Source: Pachysolen tannophilus NRRL Y-2460
Taxonomy: Eukaryota
Direction: 5' to 3'
Assembly: GCA_001661245.1 (NCBI GenBank)
Contig: KV454011.1
Span: forward strand, 186,001 to 250,000
Length of the DNA: 64,000 nt
Part shown: positions 1 through 61,721 of the stretch, in pieces
How the letters are laid out: each line of letters begins with the position of its first letter
Numbering within the stretch: position 1 is the stretch's first letter
Notes under the pieces: model-generated
Databases searched by the model: none
The model's input: the letters and a program-made list of their open reading frames with translations, nothing else
What the model was told of the DNA's origin: nothing
Translations under genes and position numbers: made by a program

Positions 1-3000
1 CATATATCAATAATAGAAATATTATTAGTGATCTTGGTATTCATATTAGCACCACATTTAAGAAGTACTTCAATTACTTCTCTATTACCGCACAATAAGG
101 CAAAATGTAGTGGAGTTAAATCATTGACATCTTTATAATCAATCCTTGAGCCTCTATTTATTAAAAACAATACTAATTTGAAATAATTCTTCATACAACT
201 CAAATGTAACAAAGTTTGCCCCTCCATAGTAACAATTGCCCAATTAGGCGATGTTATTGGTGAATTAGGCATATCTAATAATGATAAAAATTTTAGTAAC
301 ATCTCTTCAGGATTCAACGATGAATTACTGACTTCTTTTACCGTTTCGGTGGCATGAGATATCCACTCTTCATGATTTATGGAATCATTCATTTGATTTC
401 CAGTATCACCATTAGAAATAGAACCCATTGATGAAGGACCGCTGTTACTACCACCTTCACTTTCACTATTTCCTATGATTCTCTTGGCAATATTCTTAGC
501 ATCTTCTAATTTACCATTCATCTTCAATCCTACAATTTGTAAAGCTAACTCAATTAATTGTCTGTCAGTGTCATCATTATAGGTGAAGATTTGTTGTGGT
601 GCTGAAACAGTGTTATTAGCCAATTCCTCATTAGTAATATTATCAAAGTTAACCAAAACTTGACCTGCTTGACTAGCAGGAGGTAAATAAGTAACAATTG
701 TTGAATCTGACCAACAATGAGTAGCCAAAGCTCTATTTGAACCAAATTTAACTACCAAACCAGGACGGAAGTTTGATCCTAATAATGTAACTTCAACTCC
801 ACCTCTTATTGGACCTTGAGCAGGAATTATTCTTTGAATTGAAGGTAATGATGAAACAGGTTGCTGTGGTACAATAGGCAACTGTTGCTTATGTGACAAG
901 TTATTATTAGATCCTGAGGTTGATGTTATTGAAGTTACTGAAGTTTCTCTTTCTGAAGAGCCTATAACCAGTAATGAAGTATTAAATCCTCTAGGAGATC
1001 TTTGATGATCACTACTGCTGCTCATTGGTGAGATTGGATCACGTTTAATACATCTTTGCTGAGTGACACTTTCAAAATAATTATACGACGTTGGAGGAAT
1101 CGAATGAGATCCACTGATGTTCGTGTTAATATTATTACTGTTATTACTGCCAGGAACTGAATCTGTTGGCGAAGAAGGTCTCTTTCTCTTGCTTGGACGA
1201 TTAAATGATTCTGAGGATGAAGTTTGATGTTCTGAAGATGATTCTTCCAATGAAGCAGGTGATAATGGATGTTCTTTCTTAACTTTTTTAACGGCTGATA
1301 TTGTTGAAGAAGTAGATTGAGGAGAATTTGCCATAGAATATTCGGAATTTTCTCTTACATTGTTTGTAGAAGAAGTATTTGCCTTTTCAGCAGTTGATTT
1401 CTTCTTATCCATAATCATAATTGGTTTCGAAAAAGTCTTACCCAAAATCTTATCCTGATGGTCTTTCAAGACAAAAAACAATCTAAAACCTTTTGTTTCA
1501 TGATGATGTCTACAGTAACAGATAATTCTTGACATTATATCAATCTTCTTTTCGCTGACCATCATATGAGAACGGTTAATATCATTATTATTATTATTAT
1601 TATTTTCATTTTGAATTTGTTCTTCCATCATCAACGTGTTTGAATCATTTAAATAATTTTTGGAAAGTAAATCATCACAATATTCGTTAGTATCAATAAT
1701 ATTTTGAGATTGAAATGTACCAGTAGCACCAGTTGGAGGTGGGAATGATATTATTTCTTTACAATTGAATATCACTGCTCTCTTTGGAGCTACCAAGTTC
1801 CAATTAAATCCATCTTCTAAAGATCCATTTTTTCTTCTTGAAGCTCTTTTTAATTCTCTTCTGATACATCTATTACAAATATTACAATTCTTCATTGTTT
1901 CAATTAATCTCACTTGGCCTTCTTCCCTTGTAAGTGATTCAGAATCATTAGGTGATTGCAAATGTTGTTTCAGTTTTGAACGTTTATTTCCTCCAGTTTC
2001 ACCACTTGTAACGACATATGTATCTAAATATAAAATTTGACTCTTTGCAGAGTCGGGTACTTCTTCTTTTAAAAGGTATTTTGTCTTTGAAATAGTGTCT
2101 GATGGTAAATGTAATAAAAATTGTGGAGGTGCTGGAGATATCGATAAGGAAACTTTAATCTGTGTTTCTACTCTTGAATAATCAGGTAATCCTGATATTT
2201 TCAATTTGTAAGGTAATTCATCATCATTTGTTGAATCGTAATATTCCTGTGGTATCTGCAAAGAGTCTTGTTGTTGCTGTTGCTGTTGCTGTTGTTGTGA
2301 TTGTAGTTGGTCATTAGAATCGTCGTTTTCAGTGTCAATAATATTATTGTTCTGGGGAAGGGTAAAAGATTGCAAGTGTGATAAATCTTTAGGACACCCA
2401 AACTTCAATTTCATCAATTCCTGTCTTGAAAGTTCATAATTCTGGAATTCGGAAAATGATGACAGAGGCAAAGTCTGCAGCAGCAGCAGTTGTTGTTGTT
2501 GTTGCAGCAGTACCAGCATCTGCATCTGTTGTTCCTGAGATTGTTCATACATCACGCCTTGATCTTGTTTTTCCTTTCCGTTACCATTGCCATTACCATT
2601 ACCATTGTTGTTGCCAGAAGACATAAAGTCCAAATCCATCATCTCGTGTTTGAATAAATGAAATGCATCATTACCGTCAACGGCGGCAATATCGCCCAAA
2701 TCAGGTGGTGTTGTTGGCCCCACACTATTATTGCTATCATTACTACCATTAACTTGGAAAAAATATTCTTGACCTGATCCAACAACAGTGTTTATACCAG
2801 CACTATTTCTATTATTATCATGATTCTGTGTATTCAAATCTTGAGATAAAAATTGATCAAAAATATTATCACTCTTCTTATTTTTATCATCGGCGCTTAT
2901 TTCTCCATTATGACAAGAATCCACCACCATCAGCGGTTGCGTAGAATCTGAAAGAGGTGGACTTGTTGTACTATGTTCATAAAGTTTTCCATCTAAAAAC

Positions 3001-5309: not shown

Positions 5310-6142
5310 ATGTCACAGTTGAATAATGATCTAGAGAGCACGATGGTGACTACGGTGATGAATGTTAGCAATTCGTTTATTTCCAGTAAGTATGAAAATT
5401 GAAATTTTTTTTATAATAAATGGATTTTTTTCAAAATTGATTGATTCAGAAAATTAACAATTAGTTTTTCTTTTAGGTTTGGATCATTTACCTTGCGATG
5501 TTGTCAGATCGTTATGGCTTATACAATCTTTGAACTTATCTATCAATCAGAAATTTAATGATTTGAACATGTTAGTGGGTACATGTTCAGGATCGAAATT
5601 ACAGCTGCCTAATGTACTGGTACTTTCACAAATATCTTATCTTCGAGAATCTATCAATAGGTTGAAATTAGAAGTATCACTGGAATGTAAACATTTACTT
5701 TCAAAATTAAATGCACATAAAAATTATTTGGTTAATGATACAATTACAATGAATGAGATTGTTCGGTTAAGAAAAGAAAATTTAAATAAAAATGATATGG
5801 AAAGTTTTAAAAAATTTAAAATAAATTTCTTGAAAAAAATAGGTCACAATGATGTTGAATCAGAACTTAAGATGCAAAAATCAGGAAAAATAGGGCGGGC
5901 CCAACAAGAAGTCATTAATAAAAATTTAATTGCTTCAGATTCAGCTTCAATGGGTTCCTTGAAGAAAAATCAAGTTAAAACATTTGATAAAAAAAATGTA
6001 TATCCAATAAAGTTAAAACTCAAATCCTCAGCGCTTCTTTCTTCACAAAAAAAAATATCATCAAGACCTGCTATCAAGCTCAAAATAAGAACAAACAATA
6101 CGCCGCCACCACCGCCACCACCGCCACCACTGCAGCAGCCGC

Positions 6143-6174
<32 letters not shown>

Positions 6175-6648
6175 AAAAAACAAGCTCCTCTTCTGCTGCT
6201 TCCGACTGGAAGGTCTACAATACAACAATCAATTCCAGATCTGCAACAACCAAATTTATTTGAAGATACAGGACCTAAATATTGCTATTGTAGAACCGGT
6301 GACTCAGGTAAGATGATTGCATGTGATAATCCAAAATGTAAAATTGAGTGGTTTCATTATAAATGTCTTGGTTTCAAAACAAACGAAAAAGTACCAGATA
6401 CTTGGTATTGTAAACCATGTACAGAATTAATGGAAAAGAAAAAGAACAAAAATAAGAAAAAGTCAACTACAAGTGCTGCCAGTGTCACACCTGATGATAA
6501 CAAAAATAGTACAATAAAGAGAGGTAGCTCTCTGCTTAATACTGATAAATCCAGTAATGCTAATAAAAAGCAAAAAATGAAAACGAACGACATCAACATC
6601 CCTAAAATAGGTACAAGAAAAAGTTCAAGATTAAATAGCTTAATATGA
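5310..6648 (+). CDS. YNG1: ING-family PHD finger protein of NuA3; exons 5310-5385 and 5477-6648
   Basis: Spliced N-terminus SFISSLDHLPCDVVRSL resembles Yng1 SFLSTLDHLPCELIRSL. PHD YCYC...MIACDNPKCKIEWFHYKC...WYC. Intron GTAAGT (5386)...AATTAAC...TAG (5476) restores frame. Poly-Pro/poly-Gln tract near 6100-6175. Confidence 0.88.
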
Positions 6649-6743: not shown

Positions 6744-8414
6744 TTATCTCCATATTTTCTCATCTGAGTAGTACAAGAAACATAACCCATTGTAGCCAGA
6801 TATAATACCAACAGCGCAATAAACACTATATATCATTAACTTGACAAATTCATATTTTTGTAGTATCTCAAATTTATGACTAACCGCATCCATAACTCCA
6901 ACAATAAATACCATCGGTATTAAACCGAATATGTAGATAAGACTCATTCTATCCAACAAGAAAACTCTTCTGGATAATGAAGATGATATTTTGGTAACCT
7001 CTTGAAATGATGCAAAATATATGATGCACCATACATAAGTATACAATAGTTTAAACATAAATTCACCTGGACCATAGAGTAATGGGAATAACGACACATA
7101 TCCAGCGCTTACCAATAATTGAAATGGCATCACTAATCGTCTATCCTGGATGACCAAAAAGGAAAAGGGGACAATCACCAACATAATTGCTTTTTCATGA
7201 ACGTGCCATCCAAACAAAAAAGACGCAGCTCCACAAAGAGTAATGGAACCTACAAATCTTTCAAAAGTTGGAGAAATCAAGAGAGGAAGTAATGAAAAAG
7301 TTTGGTAGAAAAGGGTCAACAGGAATGTTACCCAAGGTTGTATATTTGGCAAAATTAAAAAATCGACTTCTCCAACTAATCCTTTTGTCATTGACAAATT
7401 GGATGAAGAAAGTTTTAACAGAATTGATTCATGAGATAAATTTGGAGAAAACCTGGAAATTACACTTCCAAAAAATGGTAAAGAGTAAAGCCTAAGCAAT
7501 ATTCTATCAGCAAAAGAATAAATTGCCCAAATATTGGGTGCCCAATACAGATGTGTAAGTCCTCTAGAAAAGGGGAATAATCTTTGCAATAAACTTGGTA
7601 AGACACCATAGTAAATAAAGGGACCAAATGCAACACTGAAAACTCCAATAACAATCAACCCTAATTTTATTAAATTTTGCCATATTACAAAATTGACTAA
7701 ATCATTGATATTTCTAGGAATCTTCCAATTTAAACAATATGCTCTTAATAAGAAAACGAAAAAAGCTGGAGCAATGTACAAAAAAATGTGCTTGAAACAT
7801 AATAATGTAGAAAAGCAAAATGCACATAAACAATACTTTTGTAACTTTGCTGCAACAAGTGCAAATACAAGAATACCAAACATCATTCCATTGTATTGAA
7901 AATGAATATGGTCTACTATAAATAAACCTGGAGATAATGCTAACGAACTCGCAACAACAAATGATCTTGATTTATCTTTAGGTGAAGAAGAATTGACATA
8001 CCATTGTAAAGCAACAAAATAAAGTATTTCACTAATAATGACTGTAGACCTCTGGAAATATATTGTTGGCCATGAATAAACACCTTTATCAACAATATCC
8101 AAACAACCATCTTCCTTAACAATATTGGGCACAAATTGTGAAAGAAGCCATTCAAAATATGCAAAAAAGGGCGGATAATCCAAAGTCCACTGTGATGTAT
8201 TCTCCAAATACCATTGAGATAACGGTAACTTATTCGTTATAGCCAACCAATTTCTATGAACATCGAAATCTGTAGAATGGTATGAAACGAATAAAAGTAT
8301 CTTAAGTAACGTTGAAGCAACCCATATATTCCACAAAGAAAAATTCCTCTCCTCTTTCACTGTAGGAGAATCAACAGCCTTCTTGCTTTTTTTCAACAGC
8401 GACTTACACAGCAT
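6744..8414 (-). CDS. ALG8: Dolichyl-P-Glc alpha-1,3-glucosyltransferase
   Basis: YHSTDFDVHRNWLAIT, WTLDYPPFFAYFEW, DHIHFQYNG, RLFPFSRGLTH[A]YWAPN, GWHVHEKA. Confidence 0.96.
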   Translation of the reverse strand: MLCKSLLKKSKKAVDSPTVKEERNFSLWNIWVASTLLKILLFVSYHSTDFDVHRNWLAITNKLPLSQWYLENTSQWTLDYPPFFAYFEWLLSQFVPNIVKEDGCLDIVDKGVYSWPTIYFQRSTVIISEILYFVALQWYVNSSSPKDKSRSFVVASSLALSPGLFIVDHIHFQYNGMMFGILVFALVAAKLQKYCLCAFCFSTLLCFKHIFLYIAPAFFVFLLRAYCLNWKIPRNINDLVNFVIWQNLIKLGLIVIGVFSVAFGPFIYYGVLPSLLQRLFPFSRGLTHLYWAPNIWAIYSFADRILLRLYSLPFFGSVISRFSPNLSHESILLKLSSSNLSMTKGLVGEVDFLILPNIQPWVTFLLTLFYQTFSLLPLLISPTFERFVGSITLCGAASFLFGWHVHEKAIMLVIVPFSFLVIQDRRLVMPFQLLVSAGYVSLFPLLYGPGEFMFKLLYTYVWCIIYFASFQEVTKISSSLSRRVFLLDRMSLIYIFGLIPMVFIVGVMDAVSHKFEILQKYEFVKLMIYSVYCAVGIISGYNGLCFLYYSDEKIWR

Positions 8415-18098: not shown

Positions 18099-19583
18099 TC
18101 AAACATCCAAAGATTTCAATATCTCAGACGTTTGTAAGACCCTATCGTCATCACCAAACTGTCCCATTATCTGAATACCGATTGGAACATCATTGGATGA
18201 TCTCCATGGAATGCTGATTGTTGGCAATCCTGCTAATGATGCAGGAATAGTCAACACATCATTAACGTAAGAGTTGGTTGGGCTTGAATGATCCTTTGCT
18301 TCAAAATCTTCTAATTTTGGTGCAGCAGTCATTGATGTTGGCGAGATTAAAAAGTCAATGATCCCAGTACTGTCATTGACCTTATTTCTTGACAAAATAT
18401 TTTCAAATCTAAATATCTGGTCAAATTCTACACGCAACTGTTTTCTAATTAACTGTGCCTTAATGAAATTATTTTCAAACAGTTCTGATGATAAATTATA
18501 AGTCCCCATCAATATTCTTCTCTTTACTTCATCTCCAAATCCTTTTGTTCTTGTAGGGGCAAATAATACACCGTTTTCACTATCTTTAGAAGATGAATCT
18601 GAAAACCTGAAACCATATCTTATCCCATCATATCTTGCAAGGTTAGACGATGCCTCTGCTGGGGCTAATGTGTAGTATGCAGGTAATGAGTTTTTTATGG
18701 AAGGTATTGATATTTTAATGATTTCATGACCCAGTTTTTGTAATTTCGACAAGCAGTCAAACCACGCCTTAGACACTTCTGGAGATAAATCTGAAACGTT
18801 GAATTCTTCTGCTACACCAATCTTCAAAATATTCCTGTCGGGTCTTGAATACTCTTTGGATACTAAATCATCTATCTCCAGTCTTTTCTCCGGATCTAAT
18901 GAAGTCGGATCCTTTACATCGTACTTATTCAAAATTTTGTAAACTTCACGAACCGTATCCAAATCATTAGCAATAATCCCGACCGTGTCTAAACTCTGAG
19001 CATATGCAATAACACCCCAACGTGAAATTCTCCCATAAGAAGGTTTGAAACCTAACACACCACAATAAGCAGCTGGCAATCTTACAGAACCACCGGTATC
19101 AGTTCCAATACCAAAATTTGCCAACCCACTAGCTACTGCAGCTGCAGTACCACCAGAAGAGCCACCAGCTACTCTTTTTTCCTCTGGAAATAACGGATTA
19201 AGTGTAGCACCAAAAATCGAATGGGTTGTCAGTGAACCCATTCCAAACTCGTCTAGATTCGTCTTTCCAATTATCACCGTACCGTTTTCTTCCAAAATTT
19301 TCGTTATTGTCGATTCAAATGGACTCCTATAATCACGTAGCATTTTTGATGCACAAGTCGTCGGCTCGCTCATTGTAACGATATTATCCTTTATCACAGC
19401 TAGCTGGCAACTCAACTTCCCATCAGCATTTCCCAAATCATGAATTTTGTTCAATTTGTCCTTCAATAAAGAACTGGGCCGTATACTAGTAAAAATATTA
19501 TATTTAGCTTGGCATTCTTGAATTTTATCTAAAGATCTCAATGACTTCAAGAACGTCTCCTTCAACTGCAAAGAGGAAGACAT
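18099..19583 (-). CDS. HER2: Mitochondrial glutamyl-tRNA(Gln) amidotransferase subunit A (GatA)
   Basis: Amidase signature IKDNI, GKTNLDEFGMGS, GGSSGG, GTDTGGSVRLPA; AEASSNLARYDGIRYG; ATG at 19583. Confidence 0.94.
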   Translation of the reverse strand: MSSSLQLKETFLKSLRSLDKIQECQAKYNIFTSIRPSSLLKDKLNKIHDLGNADGKLSCQLAVIKDNIVTMSEPTTCASKMLRDYRSPFESTITKILEENGTVIIGKTNLDEFGMGSLTTHSIFGATLNPLFPEEKRVAGGSSGGTAAAVASGLANFGIGTDTGGSVRLPAAYCGVLGFKPSYGRISRWGVIAYAQSLDTVGIIANDLDTVREVYKILNKYDVKDPTSLDPEKRLEIDDLVSKEYSRPDRNILKIGVAEEFNVSDLSPEVSKAWFDCLSKLQKLGHEIIKISIPSIKNSLPAYYTLAPAEASSNLARYDGIRYGFRFSDSSSKDSENGVLFAPTRTKGFGDEVKRRILMGTYNLSSELFENNFIKAQLIRKQLRVEFDQIFRFENILSRNKVNDSTGIIDFLISPTSMTAAPKLEDFEAKDHSSPTNSYVNDVLTIPASLAGLPTISIPWRSSNDVPIGIQIMGQFGDDDRVLQTSEILKSLDV

Positions 19584-24827: not shown

Positions 24828-25619
24828 ATGGCGTTTAACTACAATCAACAGCAGAACCCACAATACAATACTTATAAACCAAATAATTTGGAGTTTTACC
24901 AGTATTCTGGTCAGCAGCAAAATCAGCAGTATCTGGCGAACAGTTTTGTTAATCCTGGTCTTTCAGGACCAATGACGAATACTTTTAATCCTACTTCTGC
25001 TACTACTGTTGGTGATTTAACTGGATCTATTGGTGATACTCAATTGTCCCATGGGATCTTGGCTGCGTTTTCTACTTCAGGATATCCTGGAGAGGCTCCA
25101 TTATTGGAAGAATTGGGGATAAATTTCCAGCATATTAAGATGAAAACCCTAGCGGTTTTAAATTTTAGATCAAAGAATTTGGTTAATAATCCAGAGATAT
25201 TAGGTGATAGTGATCTTGCAGGACCGATTTTATTTGGTGTGATGTTAGGTGCTTTCTTATTGCTCAATGGTAAATTTCATTTCAGTTATATCTACGGTGT
25301 CGATCTTATTGGTATTATTTCTTTACATCAATTGTTTAAATTAATGGCAAATAGCGAAGTGGAAAATATCGATATTATTAAAACTGGCTCAGTTATAGGT
25401 TATTGCTTATTACCCTTGGTAATATTAAGTGGGATCAATGTTGTCATCAATTTGAATAATTTCCTTGGGTACATCTTGACTGGATTGTTCATCTTTTGGT
25501 GTACTTTTTCATCTAGTTACTTCTTCATGGTGGCATTCAAATTGAGTAACGTCAGAATCTTGATTGCATACCCATTGGCTATCCTATATAGTATATTTGC
25601 ATTGTTCATTATTTTCTAA
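24828..25619 (+). CDS. YIP1: Yip1 ER-Golgi trafficking membrane protein
   Basis: AAFSTSGYPGEAPLLEELGINFQHI, DSDLAGP, GKFHFSYIYG, SVIGYCLLPLV; next to MSM1. Confidence 0.94.
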   Translation: MAFNYNQQQNPQYNTYKPNNLEFYQYSGQQQNQQYLANSFVNPGLSGPMTNTFNPTSATTVGDLTGSIGDTQLSHGILAAFSTSGYPGEAPLLEELGINFQHIKMKTLAVLNFRSKNLVNNPEILGDSDLAGPILFGVMLGAFLLLNGKFHFSYIYGVDLIGIISLHQLFKLMANSEVENIDIIKTGSVIGYCLLPLVILSGINVVINLNNFLGYILTGLFIFWCTFSSSYFFMVAFKLSNVRILIAYPLAILYSIFALFIIF

Positions 25620-25859
25620 TCGAGCTTTTTTCTATCTATCTTTATCCATATATATATATATATATATTTATATTCATATTTATGTAATGATCTGAACACT
25701 TTTATTGATTGCATTTGAAAAGTAGATTAAATGAGTTTGTTTTCTTTTTCATTTTTTTTTTTTTTCAACTAATTGTAGAAAATGAAAAAGTAAAAAACCT
25801 GTAAAAATATCAGCTCAGTTTCTCTCTATTATATACTTTTCCCATGAACAATAAATATA

Positions 25860-27680
25860 ATGATAAGAGTATCAACGGTTTCATGTTCCTTCACAGGTAA
25901 TGCCAGTATAGGGTCCACCTATAGAGGTTTTAAAATTTTTTCAATTGCACTTTCATCCAGCGTTAAAAATCCACTTTCTTCAAATACTACAAGTATTACC
26001 AAACCTTACTATATCACTACACCAATTTTTTATGTTAATGCAGCACCTCATCTTGGCCATTTATATTCCATGTTACTTTGTGATATCAAGACCCGTTGGG
26101 TGAGATTATCAGGGAAACCTCTGTTTTTCACCACTGGTACGGATGAACATGGTTTAAAAGTTCAGATTGCATCAGAGAAAAATGATAAAAAAAATCCAAA
26201 AGAATTTTGTGATGAGTTATCAGTTACTTTCAAAGAATTAGCAAAATTGACGAATATTAACTATGATAGGTTTATCAGAACTACGGATGATGATCATTTA
26301 CAAGCAGTTAAGAAATTTTGGGATATTGTTTATGAAAAAGGTTATATTTATAAAGGTCAACATTCAGGATGGTACTCAGTTAGTGATGAAACTTTTTACC
26401 CAGAAACCCAAATAGAACTGAAAATTGATCCATTGACAAATAAAGAAAAATTTTATTCTAAAGAAACAGGTACTGAAGTGATTTATGAAACGGAGGAAAA
26501 TTATTTTTTTAAATTATCAAAGTTTAGACAACCATTAATTGAATTGTTGAAACAAAATCAAAATTTCATAATACCAAGAAATTACTATGAAATAATTTTA
26601 AAAGAATTAGAATCTGAAGAATTACAAGATTTGTCAATTTCAAGGCCTTACTCAAGATTAAAGTGGGGGATCCAGGTTCCTGAAGATCCTTCACAAGTTA
26701 TCTATGTCTGGTTTGATGCATTAGTCAATTATTTGACAAGTACTGGATTCCCATGGTCTCCAACATCTTTAATACAAAAACTGCCTTTGAATAATCCATG
26801 GCCCGCATCACATTTAATTGGTAAAGATATTAGTAGGTTTCATTGTATCTACTGGCCAAGCTTCCTAATGGCTGCTGGAATCGAACTACCGAAGCAAGTA
26901 ATTGTTCATGGTCACTGGTTAATGGGTGGTTCAAAAATGAGCAAAAGTAAAGGAAACATTGCAGACCCAATAGAAATGGCAAATTACTATGGTACAGAAA
27001 GCTTGAGATTTTTTTTAAGTGAAAATTCTGTCTTATCGAGTGACTGTGATTTCACAGAATCAAGATTAAACTTATCTCGTAATCAGTTTATCGACAAGAT
27101 TTGTAATTTAATGCTCAGATCTTTGAGTAAGAATTTCAGTATCGAAAGAGCATTGTCAAAGTATGAATCAGGTTTGTATACAAATGAACAATTCATAAAA
27201 AGTTTCGATAATCCACAAGCTGAAAAAAGTATTAAAAGCATAACTGCAGATTTAAATGTATTGTACGAACGCATGGATGAAGAAATGAAAACTTTCACCA
27301 CTCATAAGGCGATTAATGAAATTTGGAAAATCGTTCTTAAAGCTAATCTGTTGTTCAATGATGCAAAACCATGGACGTTTAAAAATGTTCAAGATTCACA
27401 AAAAGAAGTTTCTTTAATTGAAGATCCATTATCGAAACAAGATTTAATAATTTTTTTATCTTTAGAAACTATTAGAATATGTTCTATTTTACTTCAGCCA
27501 TTTATACCTGAACTATCTAATCAACTCTTAGACAGATTGAAAGTCGATTCTGATAAAAGAATGGCAAAATTTGCCAAAGTTGGTAAAGACTTAACTTATG
27601 GTAAAGGTGTGGTATTCACAAAAGGTTCAGAAGTACCACTAGTCAAGCTTCCACTAAGAGAAGGTGCATTAAATGTTTAA
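25860..27680 (+). CDS. MSM1: Mitochondrial methionyl-tRNA synthetase
   Basis: ITTPIFYVNAAPHLGH, TGTDEHG, YVWFDAL, KMSKS; Ser/Arg-rich presequence. Confidence 0.95.
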   Translation: MIRVSTVSCSFTGNASIGSTYRGFKIFSIALSSSVKNPLSSNTTSITKPYYITTPIFYVNAAPHLGHLYSMLLCDIKTRWVRLSGKPLFFTTGTDEHGLKVQIASEKNDKKNPKEFCDELSVTFKELAKLTNINYDRFIRTTDDDHLQAVKKFWDIVYEKGYIYKGQHSGWYSVSDETFYPETQIELKIDPLTNKEKFYSKETGTEVIYETEENYFFKLSKFRQPLIELLKQNQNFIIPRNYYEIILKELESEELQDLSISRPYSRLKWGIQVPEDPSQVIYVWFDALVNYLTSTGFPWSPTSLIQKLPLNNPWPASHLIGKDISRFHCIYWPSFLMAAGIELPKQVIVHGHWLMGGSKMSKSKGNIADPIEMANYYGTESLRFFLSENSVLSSDCDFTESRLNLSRNQFIDKICNLMLRSLSKNFSIERALSKYESGLYTNEQFIKSFDNPQAEKSIKSITADLNVLYERMDEEMKTFTTHKAINEIWKIVLKANLLFNDAKPWTFKNVQDSQKEVSLIEDPLSKQDLIIFLSLETIRICSILLQPFIPELSNQLLDRLKVDSDKRMAKFAKVGKDLTYGKGVVFTKGSEVPLVKLPLREGALNV

Positions 27681-27797: not shown

Positions 27798-29428
27798 TTA
27801 AACACAATTAATGTCGACGACCTCGCATTCTAAAGTATCTGTATCCATTAAAACTATCTGTCCAGAAACGTCAAATCTAGGAATAGAGATTAACCTGATG
27901 CTATAATTCTTTTCTCCAGTGTTGTCAACTGGAAGATTCATCATTTTTGTTTCAAATTTTGGTTGATTACCTGCAAAGTAAACATGTGGAGTCTCTTCTA
28001 AAGTGAAAGGATCTGAATCATCATAAGGGTAGCACCACAATGTGTCTGGAGCAGTTGGTACAATGTTCTGCCATACCATTGTCGATTCTAATATTGGTAT
28101 TCTCGAATCTTCCTGGCACAATGTTAATAACTCTCCTTGATTTTCGTTGACAATTTTCAGAACTTCTTCTGCACCATTATGTTTCTGATTCTCTTCAACC
28201 AGATTTTGAATCTTTGATAGGGGCACCACATACTTAAAAATATCAGTTATGTTTTCACCAGAAGTACCCAATATCCTCCATCCATCTACTTCTAACCATG
28301 CTGGATTAGTTAATCTGTTTAACTGGTTTGTTTTCAAATATTTTTTATTATTATGGAAAAAAGATTGATGTAATGGAGCCTGTGGATACGCTATTTCCGC
28401 TGGATCTGATTCCCCAGGAAGAATTGATACCGGTAACGACACCAATATTTCTTGTAAAAAGCCATCTAAAATCTGAATTGCTTCTGAACTAAAATTAGAC
28501 TTATTTGCTCCTCTATATTTAGACTTCAAATCTTCTTGTCTATCCTGGTTAATTTCGCTTATCAGAGTTGAATTTCCTGCTATCACCAATCTAGTTATTT
28601 TTTTTGAATCATCTAGTAAAAATTCCCCAATAAGAAAATTTTTCAATAATTCCAACTTGACAATATCCAAATCTGCTGGATTGATACCCAATCCTGAAAC
28701 AAAAGCAATCTTGTTACCATTAGTCCTTTCGGAAAATTTTTCATTGGTAATTTGTCTAGGTAATTGGGGTGCAGCATCTGGATAACAAATATCTACAACT
28801 TCAAATATACCAGATTTTATCTCTGCACCCAATAAACCTACAACGTTTCCTGTAACCAATAATGTCTTACGTAGAAAATCACCTTCCAAAACTGTTCTTC
28901 CACTTTCATCTTCTATCATAAACTGATCTTCATCAGGATCACTGTAACTCTCCGGAGGAGGTGGTGGAGCACCATACATATTTTGAGCAACTTCTTTCAA
29001 CACATTTGGCTTATACTTTAAATCACTGAAAATTGTACCAATTATATAACATGGTCTATTACTCTCTGTATCTAATATCCTCTCTACATATTGAGGGGTT
29101 TGACCATCAACAAAATCATTTCCCCAAACTTCCTCACATTTACGAACTAATCTTTGCCTTAACAAGTTTAACCTATGGAAATACAACGAATTGAACTGTC
29201 TGTTAAATGCCCTTGAAGATTTTGGCAAGGTATATAAATTCTTGTTCTTATAATCTGTTGGTTCAAATGACACATTACGCTTCATACCTGTCGAACTCTT
29301 CTTGTTGTCGGATGACGATTCACTTTAAATATACATACAGTATTAATTAGTAAAAAATGTCACTATAACACTATTCAATACGATTTCAAATATACTCACT
29401 CATACGTAACCAAAAAATCAGAAGTCAT
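27798..29428 (-). CDS. POL31: DNA polymerase delta B subunit; short exon 1 from 29428, exon 2 from 29322
   Basis: IEDESGR, PTAPDTLWCYPY...DPF...PHVYFAGNQ. Intron donor GTGAGT (29399) or GTATGA (29405), branch TACTAAT (29346-29352), acceptor AAG (29323). MCB ACGCGT at 29558-29563. Confidence 0.92.
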
Positions 29429-29788: not shown

Positions 29789-31870
29789 TTATAACCATTC
29801 AGCATCTTCTTCATCAGTGATGCCAAGGTCGAAGTTCATAGCAGCCTCTTCTGCCTTTTTTTGAACTTCGGTCAATCCAGTTAAATTCTCCAAATATTTC
29901 GAATCATTCAATGCCTCTTTAACAAACTCCCATCCTTTTTCTTTATATTCGCTTAATACGGCTAAGGAGCAGGCAGAACAATACTGGTAACTCGGTGCAC
30001 TTAGCTTGATGTTATTGAAATTATGTAAAAAACCTCTAATCTGGTGTGGTAATGATCCCAATATAGTGTCTGAGTCTGTACTCTTATCAGAAGAAGCCGG
30101 TGCATGTTGTCTCAAGGGATGTTGCAATATTGAAACTAAAAGTTCTACTGTCAACGCTGAGGCAATTAAAGCGGCTCCGGGTCTAGTGACAGTACACATT
30201 TGATCTAATGTTCGATCCGTTAAACTATCAGAAGGCGCCACAACGTCATTACAAAAATAACAACCTAATCTATTTTCTTTCTCAGTTTCAGTTTCAGTTT
30301 CCAGTGAAGCATCAAATTCTTTAGAAGAAACACATCCATGTCTCATAACCAAATAACTATCAAATCCCAAGGCTGCATTCATAACAATCTTATCTTTTAC
30401 ATTGGCAACAACCGTAGGTAACCATCTAGTTTCTCGAGAATCCATTAACAAAAAAATCACGTCATGCTCTTCAATCAACTTAATCAATAATTGATAGTCT
30501 CTTTCTTGTTTTGCCTCGTTTGTTATTGGATGTCCAGCCATCGGTACTTCCAAATCATATCCTTTTGAATTGACTGAAGGATATATTTCCTTTATTGCTT
30601 CTGCTGCTCTAATAGCTTTCGAAACACCACCATTAAGACAATCTTTAAATTGAAATAAAGGTTGTCTTACTGGGTTAGAAAAAGAAACTTTACCATTATC
30701 AATAAAAGTTATATTCCTAAAACCCCATCCTAGTAAGGCTCTTGCAACATATGAACCTAAAGTTCCTGCACCCAACAATAAACATTTGGTTTCTTTCAAG
30801 ACACTAAGATTTATCTCTGGGATAACTCTCCATTTCATCAATTTTAAATTTAAATCAACTGCCTGATCAGCTAATTGTACAGGGTTGATTAATGAGCCTA
30901 AATCTGCAAGTTTTGGTCCCAATTTCCCCTGAGAAGTCCTTTCCCAACCTGTTACCTTTGGCATCTCGGATTTTAATATATTTTCTGGTGAAGAAACTAA
31001 ATCCAATATAAAACTTGAACTGGTGACTCGATAAACTAATACTTTAACTTTAGTATAACCATAAATATTTAACATAGTTAAACAATTTTGTAAACCCCAC
31101 GAGACATTTTTACCCACACAGCAAGTATCTACCATACCAATAAATATTTCATTATCATCATTATTTATAATCTGTGATAAAGATTTGATTACAATGTTCT
31201 CATTATCGTTATTAGTTTCATCTATAAGGAAAAATTGTTCATTCTTACCACTTGTAATCCATTCCTTCACAGCGGAATCAAATCTTGTAACTTTATCTTC
31301 TAAATTCTCCAATAACCAATCGGAGTGCAATAGGGGGAAATTGAACCAGTAATAGAATTTATATTTTTTCAAATCAGAAAATGCCAAAATTGTGAAACTA
31401 GTCAATTGGTTTAATTTTTCCAAAATCGATCTATCCACAATTGTTTCATATAATCTAGCACCTTGTTTTTTCAAAAAATCATTTTTATTAATTTTCTTAA
31501 AATCTTCAATTGTGTTAAGATTGAACAAGAAACCTTGAGTAATAAAATTTGAATTCTCGGGTCTATTAAATTAAAATAAATGAATTTAGTTAATAATCAA
31601 ATTCTGCAAAACCAAAAAAAACAAAAAAAGAAGTAATACTTACGATGCTTCGCTAAATTCATCAAAACTGGCAAAACTCAAATCGTTTAACGTTATAATC
31701 GGACCCTGTTCCCTCCCAATAGTTTTAAAATCATATGAACCATAAACAGTCTTAGAAGATGTATCTAACCTGTAGTCATTTAATTTTAAATCTGATAACT
31801 TTTGGAAAAATGAAGAGTCAACAAAAGAATGCGGACTAATAAACTCCAATTTACGTGACATATCTGACAT
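29789..31870 (-). CDS. ATG7: Autophagy E1-like enzyme; exons 31870-31644 and 31562-29789
   Basis: DSSFFQKLSDLKLN, DLKKYKFYYWF, GAGTLG, VSFSNPVRQ, RTLDQMCTVTRPG. Intron GTAAGT (31643)...TATTAAC...TAG (31563) joins the two ORFs in frame. Confidence 0.95.
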
Positions 31871-32124
31871 ATTCACCGTCTAATAACTATATCCTACTGA
31901 CAAGAATTCATATATATATATATATATAATTATCTAGATATCAACTTGAAACTTTCTTTTAATCACAACTTATTTAATCATCTTTCTGTGTCGCTTATAT
32001 TTCTTTCTATACATTAAATAGACTAAAATTAAGCATAATCATGTTGGCACGTGACTAATGCCCGTCAATTGGCAGAACCATCTCTTCCACCCACAACTCC
32101 ACCTGCTCCATATCCACCATTTGC

Positions 32125-33726
32125 TCAATCTGCGCTATCTGTAGCATCTGCATTCCTATCGTCCAAGGTCATGTCATCCAACTCATCTAGCAACTCGTCG
32201 ATATCGATGGCTGGTCCATCTTCACCTGCATCATCTCCTTCTTCATCATCTTCATCCATCTCTGCAGCATTTTGAGAATTATATCTTTGTTGCAGAAGAT
32301 CATTTTGGTTGGCTTTATACAAGTTTATTGCCTGTCTCATCTCTGCATCTTCTTCTAATTCTTGTAAGAAGAGTTCGTAATCTCTTTCTGCTCTTTCTGC
32401 ATCTTGTTTTGCAGCACGAGATTCTGTGTTAGCGGCAACTATATCTTTATGTTCTCTTGCCATTCTCTTTAATTTCCATTGTCTATTCTTGGATTTCTTG
32501 TTCTTTCTTTGATAATGTTTCTTCACGAGTACAACATCAGGAGCATTATCAACATCTAAACTATCCCATAAATCAGAATTAAAATTTGAGTTTGCAATAT
32601 AATAACCCATTGCTGAATCTCCTGGGTGTAATATACCACCAAGATGTGATCTTATATAAAAAGTTTGATCATTAGAACCTAAATCTGCTGCTCTAGCAAC
32701 AGTAATATCTGCTAATACATGTTTCCCCTTAGATTCTCCAGTAGGTTCCACATCTAAAACTATAAATTCAACAAGTTGAGTAACATCACATAATGAAGGG
32801 AAAGCATCTCTCCAATATACTCCCGGAGTTAAATCTGCAATTTGTAAAGTTGTAGGATCAATAAATTGTAATGAATTTGAAACTTTTGAACATAATACTA
32901 TTCTTGAAATATTCCCTAATGAATGAGCCAATTTTCTTGGCAATATTACTAAATCATCTCTACAAATAGGAATGATTTCCACAGAAAATGTAAACTTATA
33001 TGAAGATGAACCTGAATGTATATCCATAGAAACCAACTCTTCAGATTTTTTACTTTTAATAGGCACAACAGAATTAAGAAAATCAAGCATTTTAGTAGCA
33101 TGATTCCTCTGAGCATAAAAAAAATCTAATCCATCTTTAGATTCTTGAATAGAAATGGTATCAACGTGTGCATTATGTTTTAAAATTAACTGTTCAAGAT
33201 ATAAAAAAGTTCTCTTATGTGGAACTTTTTGTCTAATTTGAACTGTTGCCCTCCAAGTATTTGTAGTATATGATTTTGCACAATCTGGACATTGCATAGC
33301 AACAACAACGTACTCAACTTCAAAACTTTGCTGAACAATAGTATTTGTCATAGCCTCACCTTGAACTGTTAACTTCACTCTAACTCTACGAGAATGAGGT
33401 TCTGTCCAAATAAATGAAGCATCCACCAATCTAACTTTTGTTAATCCTTTTAACCTTCTAAGACATAATGCTAATAATTCTCTGGATTCTAATTCTGCTC
33501 TGATCCATTGTCCCGGTGGCTGCAAAAACCTTTCACAGTTACGACAAAAGGAAAGATTTGCTTCTCTTGGAATACCCTCTGTAATATCAACGGTTAATTT
33601 AATACAATCATAACACATTACTAAACCTGTTGAACCATCCATAGGAATACCACAGTTACAACATAATACTGTCGCAACTGCTTGACCCTCATGGCTATGC
33701 GGTTGGAGCTGAGTATAGTTAGACAT
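32125..33726 (-). CDS. NMD3: 60S export adaptor Nmd3
   Basis: LCCNCG...MCYDC, FCRNCER, LESRELLALCL, FIWTEPHSRR, VQIRQKVPHKRTF; C-terminal NES-like LLDELDDMTL. Confidence 0.97.
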   Translation of the reverse strand: MSNYTQLQPHSHEGQAVATVLCCNCGIPMDGSTGLVMCYDCIKLTVDITEGIPREANLSFCRNCERFLQPPGQWIRAELESRELLALCLRRLKGLTKVRLVDASFIWTEPHSRRVRVKLTVQGEAMTNTIVQQSFEVEYVVVAMQCPDCAKSYTTNTWRATVQIRQKVPHKRTFLYLEQLILKHNAHVDTISIQESKDGLDFFYAQRNHATKMLDFLNSVVPIKSKKSEELVSMDIHSGSSSYKFTFSVEIIPICRDDLVILPRKLAHSLGNISRIVLCSKVSNSLQFIDPTTLQIADLTPGVYWRDAFPSLCDVTQLVEFIVLDVEPTGESKGKHVLADITVARAADLGSNDQTFYIRSHLGGILHPGDSAMGYYIANSNFNSDLWDSLDVDNAPDVVLVKKHYQRKNKKSKNRQWKLKRMAREHKDIVAANTESRAAKQDAERAERDYELFLQELEEDAEMRQAINLYKANQNDLLQQRYNSQNAAEMDEDDEEGDDAGEDGPAIDIDELLDELDDMTLDDRNADATDSAD

Positions 33727-39417: not shown

Positions 39418-41100
39418 ATGAGAGTAAGAAGTAAGTTTAAAAAAAAAAAAANAAAAAGAGAGAGAGGGAGATGATTTTGTTATGTATTAGATTTGAGTTT
39501 GTATACTAACTTTTTTTTTTTTTTTTTGATTTGTTAAGAGCCATCTTCCAAGAGAACCAGTACTCGTATGAGAGAGGGTATTAAGAAGAAAGCAGCTGCC
39601 CACCAAAGAAAACAAAGGAAATTATCTAAGAAAGATCCAACATGGAAGTCGAAGCAAAAGAAAGATCCTGGTATTCCAGCAAGTTTCCCATACAAAGATA
39701 AAATTTTATTGCAAATCGAAGAAAGTAGAAGACATGAGCAAGAAGAAAAAGAAAAAAGAAAATTGGCTAAGAAGAATGCAGCCGCTGCTAGTGGTGATGC
39801 ATATGACGAGGCGATGTCAGAAGATGATGAAGATGAGCAAGACGATGGAGCTAACGGTTTGGCAGCGTTGTTAACTTCGGCTCAGCAGGCTGCAATAGAA
39901 TATGAAGGTGGTTCGCCTGATAAAGATGATATCGATGAAGATGGAATGGATGAAGATCATGAGGTCATTGAACATGATATTGATTTTTTCGCTAGTGATA
40001 ATGAAGATGATGAAGAAAATAATGCTGCTGTTGACAAATCTAGGAAAGCATATGATAAAATTTTTAAAGCGGTTGTTGAAGCTTCGGATGTGGTATTATA
40101 CGTTTTGGATGCAAGAGATCCAGAATCAACAAGATCCAAAAAAGTTGAAGAAACAATTTTACAAAACCATTCGAAAAGATTGATATTGATCTTAAACAAA
40201 GTTGATTTGGTTCCTGAAAATGTTTTGAAACAATGGTTAGATTTTTATCAGTCATCATTCCCAACGATTCCTTTAAAATCATCATTTACTGCTTCAAATT
40301 CATCAAGTTTCAATAAAAAATTAACACAGGCCGTCACTTCCAATTCTTTGTTACAAGCATTAAAGGCTTACGCAAACAAATCAAATTTGAAAAGATCTAT
40401 TATAGTTGGTATTATTGGATATCCAAACGTTGGTAAATCCTCTATTATCAATTCTTTAGTATCAAGACATGGAGGAAATAAAGTAGTTTGCCCAGTGGGT
40501 AATCAAGCTGGTGTTACTACATCATTAAGAGAAATTAAAATTGATAATAAATTAAAAGTTCTTGATTCCCCAGGTATTGTTTTCCCATCAACCGATAAGA
40601 AACAATCAAAAATAAAACACGAAGCTCAATTAGCTTTGTTAAATGCAATTCCTCCAAAACAAGTTAAAGATCCAATTTCTGCAGTAACATTATTGGTTAA
40701 AAGAATATCAAAGCAACAGGAGATGACTCTTGCTTTTAGAAAATATTATCAATTACCTCCAATAATTAAACCAACAGCTGAGGAATTTGCTAAAGAAGTA
40801 CTCGTTCATGTTGCCCGTAGGTTAGGAAGGTTGGGCAAGGGAGGTATACCGAACTTGAAAGCCGCTGCATTGGCGATATTAAATGATTGGAGAGATGGAA
40901 AATTTGTGGGATGGACATTACCTAAAAACTCAAGAGAAGCTGCTGCTGCTGCTGATTCTGCTAATGGACATGATGTTAAAGAAAAATCAGCAAGTCAAAA
41001 TGGAATTCCTCCTCCAAAAGTTGAACAGACTACTATTGTCAAGGAATGGTCTGCGGAATTTGATCTTGATGGATTGTTTAACGGAGTCTTTGGTGAGTAG
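39418..41100 (+). CDS. NUG1: Circularly permuted GTPase Nug1 (60S biogenesis); exons 39418-39430 and 39539-41100
   Basis: Spliced N-terminus MRVRKPSSKRTSTRMREGIKKK; KKDPGIP, LDARDP, NKVD, GYPNVGKSS, DSPG. Intron GTAAGT (39431)...TACTAAC (39504)...AAG (39538). Confidence 0.95.
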
Positions 41101-43871: not shown

Positions 43872-44801
43872 ATGATTCCATCTACTTTGTTACGCTTGAT
43901 TACCTTGTTAACTGTGGTTGTTTTTCTAAATGGAATAGATAGTGCCAGTATTGAAACCAAAAGAAGTGAAATGGTATTCCAAGAAGTAGATACTGTTTCT
44001 TCTGGAATCGAGCTAACAAGTTATTTGAAAGCGGCAACCTCTCAAAATGGACAAATTGGAGTTAACAACTCTTCACAATTATTTGTTGAAATAGATTCTG
44101 ATTTTTATCAAAAATTAGATACTTCAGCTATTCCCTACCCAATCTATATCAATGATACAAACGTTTACCTAAGTAAACCTTTCCCAATTGATACAGAAGC
44201 TCAGGGTATATTTGACGATTGGCTAAATGATAATCCCAACAAGCACAAGAAACCTTCCAAGACACCAAAGAAAAAAAACCCGAAAAACGCTGTTAGGTAT
44301 GAGGTTAAGGCAAACTCAATTTCCAATCCAAGGGTTGCTGCTGCTTTCCCAATTTCAGTTTGTCTTGACTCAACAGAAGGTGCAGGTGGTAAAATTGCTA
44401 AAACTGGTACTGTTACTATAAGTAGCGGTGTAAGCACAGATGTTAGTTTAAGAGATGCTATATTGGGTCTTTTACATGTGAAAGTAGGTTATTCCACAAG
44501 TTTATCGCTTTCATTTCAATTTTCATGTTCATGTAATCTGGAAAAAGGTGAAACAGTTCTGATGTATCTTGAACCTTGGCAAATTACTGCTGATACCCTG
44601 CATAGGAAAATTTACGAAACTGAAGGCCTTAGAGCATATGAACTGAATTGGTCTCCAAATTTTATAAGCAAATGGATAATAGACGTACCTCCAGGTACCA
44701 CTTGTATAACCACCAATTACTTACAATGTAATTATTTTGACCCAGATCTCGAATCAGATACTTTAAGTTACGAATATCCCAAGACACACATAGAACCTTA
44801 G
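43872..44801 (+). CDS. Orphan secreted protein (309 aa) with signal peptide, Kex2 KR site and Ser/Thr-rich beta region
   Basis: First ATG at 43872: MIPSTLLRLITLLTVVVFLNGIDSASIETKR; five Cys in the C-terminal half. Confidence 0.75.
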   Translation: MIPSTLLRLITLLTVVVFLNGIDSASIETKRSEMVFQEVDTVSSGIELTSYLKAATSQNGQIGVNNSSQLFVEIDSDFYQKLDTSAIPYPIYINDTNVYLSKPFPIDTEAQGIFDDWLNDNPNKHKKPSKTPKKKNPKNAVRYEVKANSISNPRVAAAFPISVCLDSTEGAGGKIAKTGTVTISSGVSTDVSLRDAILGLLHVKVGYSTSLSLSFQFSCSCNLEKGETVLMYLEPWQITADTLHRKIYETEGLRAYELNWSPNFISKWIIDVPPGTTCITTNYLQCNYFDPDLESDTLSYEYPKTHIEP

Positions 44802-54147: not shown

Positions 54148-54410
54148 AAGATAAAGATATGAAAAAAAAAAAGGAAAAAAAAGGCAAAATAAGGAAAAAG
54201 TCATGGGAGATAAAATACCATTTTTTAGTTAATTAGCATTTAAGGTGTGTTATATAATATATTAAATTCTTTACTTTTCTTTACGGTGTTTAAATGTTAA
54301 ATTTATTGCAATTAATTCAAATTTATTACCAATAATATAGAGTGAGTGGTAAAAACTGTATGGGTAAAAATAGATAAAATAAAATAATAATAATAAAAAA
54401 AAAATTAAAG

Positions 54411-54482
54411 CTCCGCGACGGGGAATTGAACCCCGGTCTACCACGCGACAAGCGGTAATTCTAGCCACTAAACTATCACGGA
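54411..54482 (-). tRNA. tRNA-Asp(GTC)
   Basis: Reverse complement TCCGTGATAGTTTAGTGGCTAGAATTACCGCTTGTCGCGTGGTAGACCGGGGTTCAATTCCCCGTCGCGGAG folds as a cloverleaf; T-run downstream. Confidence 0.96.
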
Positions 54483-54705: not shown

Positions 54706-54777
54706 GCCGTTATGGCCAAGTGGTAAGGCACCGCACTTGTAATGCGGCGATCCGCGGTTCAATCCCGCGTGACGGCA
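54706..54777 (+). tRNA. tRNA-Thr(TGT)
   Basis: GCCGTTA/TGACGGC acceptor; CCGCA-CT-TGT-AA-TGCGG anticodon arm; CGCGG TTCAATC CCGCG T arm; poly-T terminator. Confidence 0.96.
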
Positions 54778-55803: not shown

Positions 55804-56199
55804 TTAAGCTGAAGTGGATGATGAGTATTTTGTGACAGCACGAGTACCTTCAGAAACAGCATGTTTAGCCAATTCACCTGGTAAAATCAATCTAACAGCA
55901 GTTTGGATTTCTCTAGCAGAAATAGTAGATTTCTTATTATAAGCAGCCAATTTAGAAGCTTCTGAAGCAATTCTTTCAAAAATATCATTAACAAACGAAT
56001 TCATAATCGACATTGCCTTTTGTGAAATACCAGTATCTGGGTGAGTTTGTTTTAAAACTTTGTAAATATATGATGAATAAGTTTCCTTTCTTGTCTTGGT
56101 TCTCTTTTTCAGATCTCCACCAGTAGCAGTTTTCTTAGCAGCTGGTTTCTTTTCAGCTGGTGCTTTAGAAGCAGGTTTCTTTTCAGCTTTTGGTGCCAT
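55804..56199 (-). CDS. HTB1: Histone H2B
   Basis: [23 protein letters not shown]...[13 protein letters not shown]; divergent pair with H2A. HTB1 vs HTB2 numbering cannot be decided. Confidence 0.97.
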
Positions 56200-60382: not shown

Positions 60383-61721
60383 TTAATGTTGACCGTCATG
60401 AGCAGCAGGTTCCAAATTTCCTTCATCTATGTCCATTTTTTCTTCGTTTTCATTTTCATTTTCGATTTCGTTTTCGTGTTCGATTTCAACAGCTACTGGG
60501 GTATCGTCTCTACTACTTTTCAAGTCTTCAGTGTCTTGTTTCAAATCTCCATTTGCAATCAAATTATCTCTTTTCGATTTGATGAAATTCTCGTTCAAGT
60601 CCCATACTTCTAGATTACCATTCATTGAAACGGCAGCTAGAATTTTACCTCCATCGAATGTATCAATTTGTAATACTGGAGATTTTTGATGCTCGTCACC
60701 TTTAATCTTCAAGATATTCAAGATTTCCTTTGTTTGTAAATTCCAAATATAAATGTTACCATTATCAGATCCTGACAGGATTAGTGGTATATATTCATTA
60801 GAAGTTATGAATCTTGTACCACAAGTATATTTTTCGCAAACAATTGTCTTTTTAGTCTTTAATATTTTGGAATTCATATTATCTAGACCACTACCCTTAG
60901 AGCCATCATTATTTCCATCATCATTCTTGACTTGTTCTCCTTCACCAATAAAAGTCTTTACTACTTTATTATTCATATAATCCCATAATCTAATGGAACC
61001 ATCTAATGTACTTGCCAAGATATATTTCCCATTTGGTGAAAATCTAACATAACTAACGGGGAAACTTGATCCACCACTATACTCATAGATTAAAGTCTTT
61101 AAACATTGACCAGATTCTGTATCAAATAACCTAATTAAACCATCAAAACTTGCACTTACTATAATAGTACCATCCCAGCTTACATCCAATGAAGAAATAG
61201 GATCTGAATGTGCTGATAAAGTTTTCAAACATTTCCCCCTCAAGACATCCCAAATTCTTATAGCTTCATCTGAAGATCCACTTATTAATAAATTCCCCTT
61301 GTAATTAAATTCAAGACAAGTTATATGATACGTATGACCTTTTAATATTCTAATACATTTACCATATTCCACTGACCAAATTATTATTGTTTCATCGTCA
61401 GATGCAGATGCAATATATTTTGAATCTGGTGACCAACAAATATCTGAAACCCCTTTTGAATGACCTTTTAAACTTTTCTCAAAATTACCAGTCTTAAGAT
61501 CCCATATCTTGATCAACTTATCAGAAGCTAATAATTTTCAGTTAGTATTTAGTATTTACGAAAAAAAAAAATTTATTAATTTAAACAAATTACTTACAAC
61601 CTGTAGCAATATATTTACCATTTGGACTCAATTTAACTGAAGTAGTAAACTCATCATGAATTTTATCCAATGAATACCTCCTTATATACAATTTCCCTAG
61701 ATCTATATTATCCAATGTCAT
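60383..61721 (-). CDS. SWD3: WDR5-like WD40 COMPASS subunit; exons 61721-61598 and 61527-60383
   Basis: WD40 repeats GHSKGVSDICWSPD, AHSDPISS, TESGQCLKTL, FSPNGKYIL, EKY. Intron GTAAGT (61597)...TACTAAC...TAG (61528). Next to UMP1. Confidence 0.9.

Follow-up and report, generated by a model that had tools for sequence, protein, structure and literature searches.

Alanine as the probable reading of CTG codons in a 64,000-nucleotide window of budding-yeast DNA

The window, by which we mean the whole stretch of 64,000 nucleotides analyzed here, very probably comes from the nuclear genome of a CUG-Ala-clade budding yeast, in which CUG is read as alanine (NCBI table 26); the source is most likely Pachysolen tannophilus or a species close to it. 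A standard or bacterial table applied to the window would give leucine where the cell has alanine. The wrong table affects 85 codons in 27 of the 32 gene models, including an invariant alanine of ALG8, and table 26 is the table to use for reading this genome. Alanine decoding of CTG has been described before, the public annotation of this genome makes use of it, and its novelty here is little. The preliminary description of this DNA had rated the phenomenon as rare but already described, and rightly so: the reassignment was published in 2016, has been confirmed by proteomics, has its own NCBI table and is present in the public records of the contig. Nothing in it is scientifically new.

Alignment columns at the CTG codons

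The gene models of the window hold 85 CTG codons among 14,916 codons (0.57%), and 71 CTG codons lie within the 27 ORFs that reach 150 codons or more. At least one CTG is present in 27 of the 32 gene models or fragments (84%), which bears out the earlier call for retranslation of the proteins. Before translation, CTG was masked as X, so that the codon was unable to bias the alignments. The masked proteins were aligned with 119 relatives for ALG8 (besides the window's own entry), 150 representatives for HER2 and 119 relatives for MSM1; for histone H2B, 11 close homologues were taken from a cluster look-up. A tally after Codetta was then obtained as the sum of log(column frequency/background) over the sites of each codon. 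Ten alignable CTG sites were scored, out of 14 in the four proteins and 85 in all gene models, whereas ALG8-2, ALG8-6, ALG8-332 and MSM1-308 (sites are named by protein and codon number) were dropped for a sequence coverage below 70%. The coordinates of the features are collected in Table 1. All five codons cited in the preliminary description proved to be in-frame CTG codons on the minus strand.

Table 1. Positions in the window of the genes, CTG codons and tRNA genes discussed in the text
Feature	Position	Strand	Basis
ALG8 (Alg6_Alg8 glycosyltransferase), 556 codons, 5 CTG (codons 2, 6, 289, 332, 365)	6744..8414	-	Pfam PF03155, E 5e-171
ALG8 codon 289, RGLTH[CTG]YWAPN	7548..7550	-	in-frame CTG
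ALG8 codon 365, CTG counter-site, hydrophobic column	7320..7322	-	weighted alignment column
HER2/GatA-type amidase, 494 codons, 4 CTG (codons 118, 235, 284, 368)	18099..19583	-	Pfam PF01425, E 1e-122
HER2 codon 368, in-frame CTG	18480..18482	-	
HER2 codon 284, in-frame CTG, counter-site of the preliminary description	18732..18734	-	
HER2 codon 118, in-frame CTG	19230..19232	-	
MSM1 (mitochondrial MetRS), 606 codons, 4 CTG (codons 88, 187, 308, 497)	25860..27680	+	Pfam PF09334
tRNA-Asp (GTC)	54410..54482	-	ARAGORN; Rfam RF00005
tRNA-Thr (TGT)	54706..54777	+	ARAGORN; Rfam RF00005
Histone H2B gene	55804..56199	-	PDB matches
Histone H2B codon 30, GGD[CTG]KKR, in-frame CTG	56110..56112	-	

Over the ten CTG sites, which are a small sample, the tally gives +5.3 nats for alanine, -3.2 for serine, -7.5 each for glutamine and threonine, and -9.0 for leucine, placing serine 8.5 nats and leucine 14.3 nats below alanine. 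Alanine ranks first whichever single CTG site is removed, and the smallest gap between alanine and serine in this leave-one-out series is 3.8 nats. A control tally on the three deep alignments (ALG8, HER2 and MSM1) returned the standard residue for 59 of the 60 other sense codons, the sole miss being CGC, with a single site. The tabulation of CTG columns in the manner of Codetta, which had been proposed as a check on the alanine reading, picks alanine.

Strongly conserved columns separate the candidate residues as follows. Columns with at least 85% alanine hold two of the ten CTG sites, namely ALG8-289 and H2B-30; by comparison, such columns hold 35 of 90 Ala-codon sites, one of 152 Ser-codon sites and none of 172 Leu-codon sites. 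None of the ten CTG sites is found in a column of at least 85% leucine, where 57 of the 172 other Leu-codon sites are found, and by a hand estimate this absence would have a probability of about 0.02 (0.67^10) if CTG encoded leucine. Columns of at least 85% serine likewise contain none of the ten CTG sites, as against 40 of 152 Ser-codon sites. A genome-wide concentration of CTG in conserved leucine or serine columns had been named in advance as the pattern that would speak against alanine; in the window, none of the ten alignable sites lies in such a column at this threshold. When counted by column in the three deep alignments, CTG occurs in none of 52 conserved leucine columns and in none of 30 columns of at least 85% serine.

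At the level of individual sites, ALG8-289 falls on the conserved alanine of the HAYWAPN motif, as had been recognized from the letters of the sequence. All 119 yeast homologues have alanine in this column, as do all 78 loci that cover the site among 80 metagenomic fungal ALG8 loci (34-58% identity). H2B-30 is alanine in all 11 other members of its 90% cluster, these close homologues including C. boidinii, Clavispora, Scheffersomyces and Ambrosiozyma, and glycine in S. cerevisiae H2B; the H2B tail had been described as otherwise free of leucine, and no leucine occurs in the tail before codon 30. HER2, which matches the mitochondrial GatA subunit of PDB 4n0h with an E value of 3.5e-149, contributes four sites. 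The proposed match of HER2-368 to a yeast alanine is correct for S. cerevisiae, and the weighted column (150 representatives) reads A 0.44, S 0.20 and Y 0.11. The description of HER2-118 as a small-residue position is accurate for S. cerevisiae, with glycine, and for four bacterial GatA chains, with serine (two of these chains being the same Thermotoga protein), but does not extend to the column as a whole, which is variable (H 0.21, S 0.21, T 0.11, A 0.11, F 0.08, G 0.07). HER2-284, offered as a counter-site, is indeed leucine in S. cerevisiae and also in two of three distinct bacterial GatA proteins, in a column of L 0.24 and A 0.18, and the column of HER2-235 is variable.

The columns of the three MSM1 sites read T 0.44, S 0.38 and A 0.13 at MSM1-88, E 0.63 at MSM1-187, and Q 0.36, G 0.15 and L 0.14 at MSM1-497. 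ALG8-365 is the one CTG site in a majority-leucine column (weighted L 0.54, F 0.17, I 0.15, A 0.03), whereas none of 90 ordinary Ala-codon sites lies in such a column. The same position is alanine in the nearest relative, P0002, in a near-identical context, and the 76 metagenome loci include isoleucine 24 times, leucine 16, alanine 13, valine 10 and serine once. Eight further CTG sites could be placed in PDB alignments of POL31, SRP101, NSE1 and DSD1; all of them fall in variable or gapped columns, opposite D, V, N/V, R/D or gaps, and are uninformative, as is, for CTG, the alignment of ALG8 to the ALG6 structure.

Public protein records and lineage

Public records agree with table 26. NCBI and UniRef records from the same contig (2,514,465 bases) show alanine at 18 of 18 CTG codons in five of the six window proteins examined, and the recorded ALG8, MSM1 and ORF 43872 products have alanine at every CTG (five, four and four codons, respectively). 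Exact matches to HER2 and H2B as translated with table 26 exist in public records (NCBI, UniRef, nr), whereas table-1 and table-12 versions of these two proteins, the two that were tried, are absent from public records by exact look-up. For the POL31 ORF (27798-29285, minus strand), no public record was found under table 26, 1 or 12; a different start or an intron is probable in the deposited gene model. The alanine in these records is the depositors' choice of code and no independent experiment; the translation tool itself labels table 26 'Pachysolen tannophilus nuclei: CTG=A'.

Among named organisms, the window proteins best match Komagataella, Candida boidinii, Kuraishia, Ogataea and Pichia (55-66% identity), and closer relatives exist at 71% and 63% identity. 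In an ALG8 tree of 22 rows, which include no named Ala-clade sequence, the window forms a pair with P0002 (support 100/99) and is separated from the core Ser1 clade (100/100), with a support of 47/88 at the deeper node. Krassowski et al. report that the Ala clade (Pachysolen, Nakazawaea and Peterozyma) splits deeply from the Leu2 clade within Pichiaceae, the latter including Komagataella, Ogataea, Pichia and Kuraishia (PMC5951914). With Leu2-clade Pichiaceae nearest and the core Ser1 clade excluded, the relatives of the window appear to fit this published position of the Ala clade. The origin from the Pachysolen clade that the preliminary description had put forward is supported by the table-26 records and the alanine columns and is in keeping with these relatives, and its assignment of CTG to alanine under table 26 is upheld by alignments favoring alanine over serine and leucine and by the CTG=Ala translation of the contig's public proteins.

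Mechanism and rival decodings

According to the literature, decoding as alanine would be performed by a tRNA with the anticodon CAG that is derived from tRNA-Ala and retains the alanine identity set (G3:U70, A73 and no long variable arm); as the anticodon is not read by AlaRS, such a tRNA(CAG) would be charged with alanine. The tRNA(CAG) of P. tannophilus is reported to bear alanine identity elements, and LC-MS/MS in this yeast is reported to have found alanine at 97.2% of 907 fully supported CUG positions (PMC4937558). The two tRNA genes in the window, tRNA-Asp and tRNA-Thr, are neither of them the CUG decoder. The same report describes CUG codons as having arisen anew once the ancestral tRNA was lost, and counts 16,824 CUG positions, which affect 80% of the 5,288 genes (PMC4937558). 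In the window, the CTG codons would likewise be mostly new and placed at alanine-tolerant, often weakly conserved positions, and it would be because of this that only some of them stand in conserved alanine columns and a few in columns that are hydrophobic or serine-rich in other yeasts. The published account is matched both by the density of CTG in the window and by its spread across weakly conserved sites.

Compared with the known codes, the window resembles NCBI code 26 (Pachysolen tannophilus nuclear) in that its CTG codons occur in invariant alanine columns and avoid conserved leucine and serine columns, in that their share of codons and of gene models is near the published figures, and in that the nearest named relatives are Leu2-clade Pichiaceae and the public records use table 26; no difference between this code and the window was found. 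With NCBI code 12 (CUG=Ser, Candida/Debaryomyces Ser1), the window shares the reassignment of the same codon, putatively via a tRNA with the anticodon CAG, and a CTG that is rare and mostly found at positions of weak conservation, including serine-rich ones. In contrast to that code, CTG in the window occupies invariant alanine and no conserved serine columns, and the lineage is outside core Ser1.

Serine decoding (table 12), the code of the Ser1 clade (Candida/Debaryomyces) and of the Ser2 clade (Ascoidea/Saccharomycopsis), is the reading to which several variable columns lean. Serine outscores alanine at four of them, MSM1-88 (S 0.38 against A 0.13), HER2-118 (S 0.21 against A 0.11), HER2-235 and MSM1-497, and the nearest relatives at the reliable CTG sites carry A, A, S, S, S and Q, that is, serine at three sites. 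The margin of alanine over serine depends largely on the two invariant-alanine sites, and without them alanine and serine would be nearly level. Pachysolen itself is reported to have first been given the serine code by a conservation analysis in 2014 (PMC4986446), because of the same ambiguity between alanine and serine columns, and the two codes are therefore easily confused; proteomics is reported to have corrected that assignment later (PMC4986446, PMC4937558). What decides against serine here is that it would have to be placed at ALG8-289, which is alanine in 197 of 197 sequences, and at H2B-30, alanine in 11 of 11. Given the single Ser-codon site among 152 in columns of at least 85% alanine, finding two of ten CTG sites there would have a probability of about 0.002 under a serine code (hand estimate). 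The empty conserved serine columns, the deficit of 8.5 nats in the summed log-odds, the position outside the core Ser1 clade and the absence of table-12 HER2 and H2B from public records point the same way, and serine decoding is considered very unlikely. The standard code, under which CTG would be leucine and its sites in alanine columns chance substitutions, can draw on ALG8-365 and HER2-284, both of which look leucine-like (L 0.54 in the one; L 0.24 and leucine in S. cerevisiae in the other). It is strongly disfavored, to the point of being nearly negligible, by the lack of any Leu-codon site among 172 in the alanine columns that hold two of ten CTG sites, by the vacancy of CTG in leucine columns occupied by 57 of 172 other Leu-codon sites, by a score 14.3 nats below that of alanine, and by public records in which table-1 HER2 and H2B are missing.

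Ambiguous decoding, chiefly as alanine with a functional share of leucine or serine, as reported for Ascoidea asiatica, would account for the mixed preferences of the columns at CTG sites, and dual decoding is reported to exist in another yeast (PMC6041473). Mass spectrometry of P. tannophilus is nevertheless reported to have found CUG no more ambiguous than AUG (PMC4937558). Nothing in the window requires a second decoding, mixed columns being expected of new codons at tolerant sites, and such ambiguity is judged to be exceedingly unlikely. A minor leucine (or serine) decoding that persists in the strain, tolerated or used at the hydrophobic ALG8-365 and at HER2-284, seems equally far-fetched; if true, it would make the Ala clade the second case of dual decoding.

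Gene content and further observations

The window has a G+C content of 31.2% and carries dense, intron-poor budding-yeast genes. Pfam families identify ALG8, a GatA/HER2-type amidase, NSE1, mitochondrial MetRS, POL31, ATG7, NMD3, BRF1, SRP receptor alpha, a GNL3/Grn1-type GTPase, two kinases, MRS2, D-serine dehydratase, FTR1 and mitochondrial AspRS; gene names that go beyond the Pfam families are our own reading. A divergent H2A/H2B pair is also present. A single N occurs at 39452, in the spacer that separates the gene for SRP receptor alpha from that for the GNL3/Grn1-type GTPase.

ATG7, MSD1 and a WDR5/SWD3-like WD40 gene (31643, 59948 and 61547-61597, all on the minus strand) look truncated as ATG-started ORFs. 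Splice-donor-like GTAAGT or GTATGT motifs occur upstream of each of the three ORFs, joined in the WD40 gene by a TACTAAC branch site. The idea that these split genes are an oddity was rejected, as the splice signals point to ordinary 5' introns.

The ORF at 43872-44801 (plus strand) has 309 codons, an N-terminus resembling a signal peptide, and four CTG codons in a span of 36 codons. It belongs to no Pfam family, and a deep search at E<=1e-8 over 5.8 billion clusters (lengths 169-541 only) returned the window's own protein and no relative, hence no alignment was available for it. The public record nonetheless lists it as a protein. At 2424-2543 (minus strand) and 5569-6648 (plus strand), runs of CTG directly adjoin runs of CAA/CAG. 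The stretch in an SPT23/MGA2-like ORF reads CTG GTA CTG CTG, five CAA, four CTG and CAG, while ORF 5569 has a poly-Pro/poly-Gln tract flanked by CTG. Under table 26, these CTG runs become short poly-Ala segments beside poly-Gln.

Among the homologues of ALG8, HER2 and MSM1, a few (such as P0053, P0099, P0113, which is named Australozyma, P0124 and P0193) show leucine in columns of at least 85% serine, as is expected if CUG-Ser yeasts are publicly translated with the standard code. The metagenome scan with the ALG8 alignment, which gave the 80 fungal loci, yielded almost no homologues of the neighboring window genes. Two neighbor pairs of the window, YIP1-like/MSM1 (24828-27680) and ATG7/NMD3 (29789-33726), presumably match the gene order of S. 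cerevisiae. One Candida record (P0356) has a Yip domain fused with MSM1, suggesting that the adjacency of Yip and MSM1 is old.
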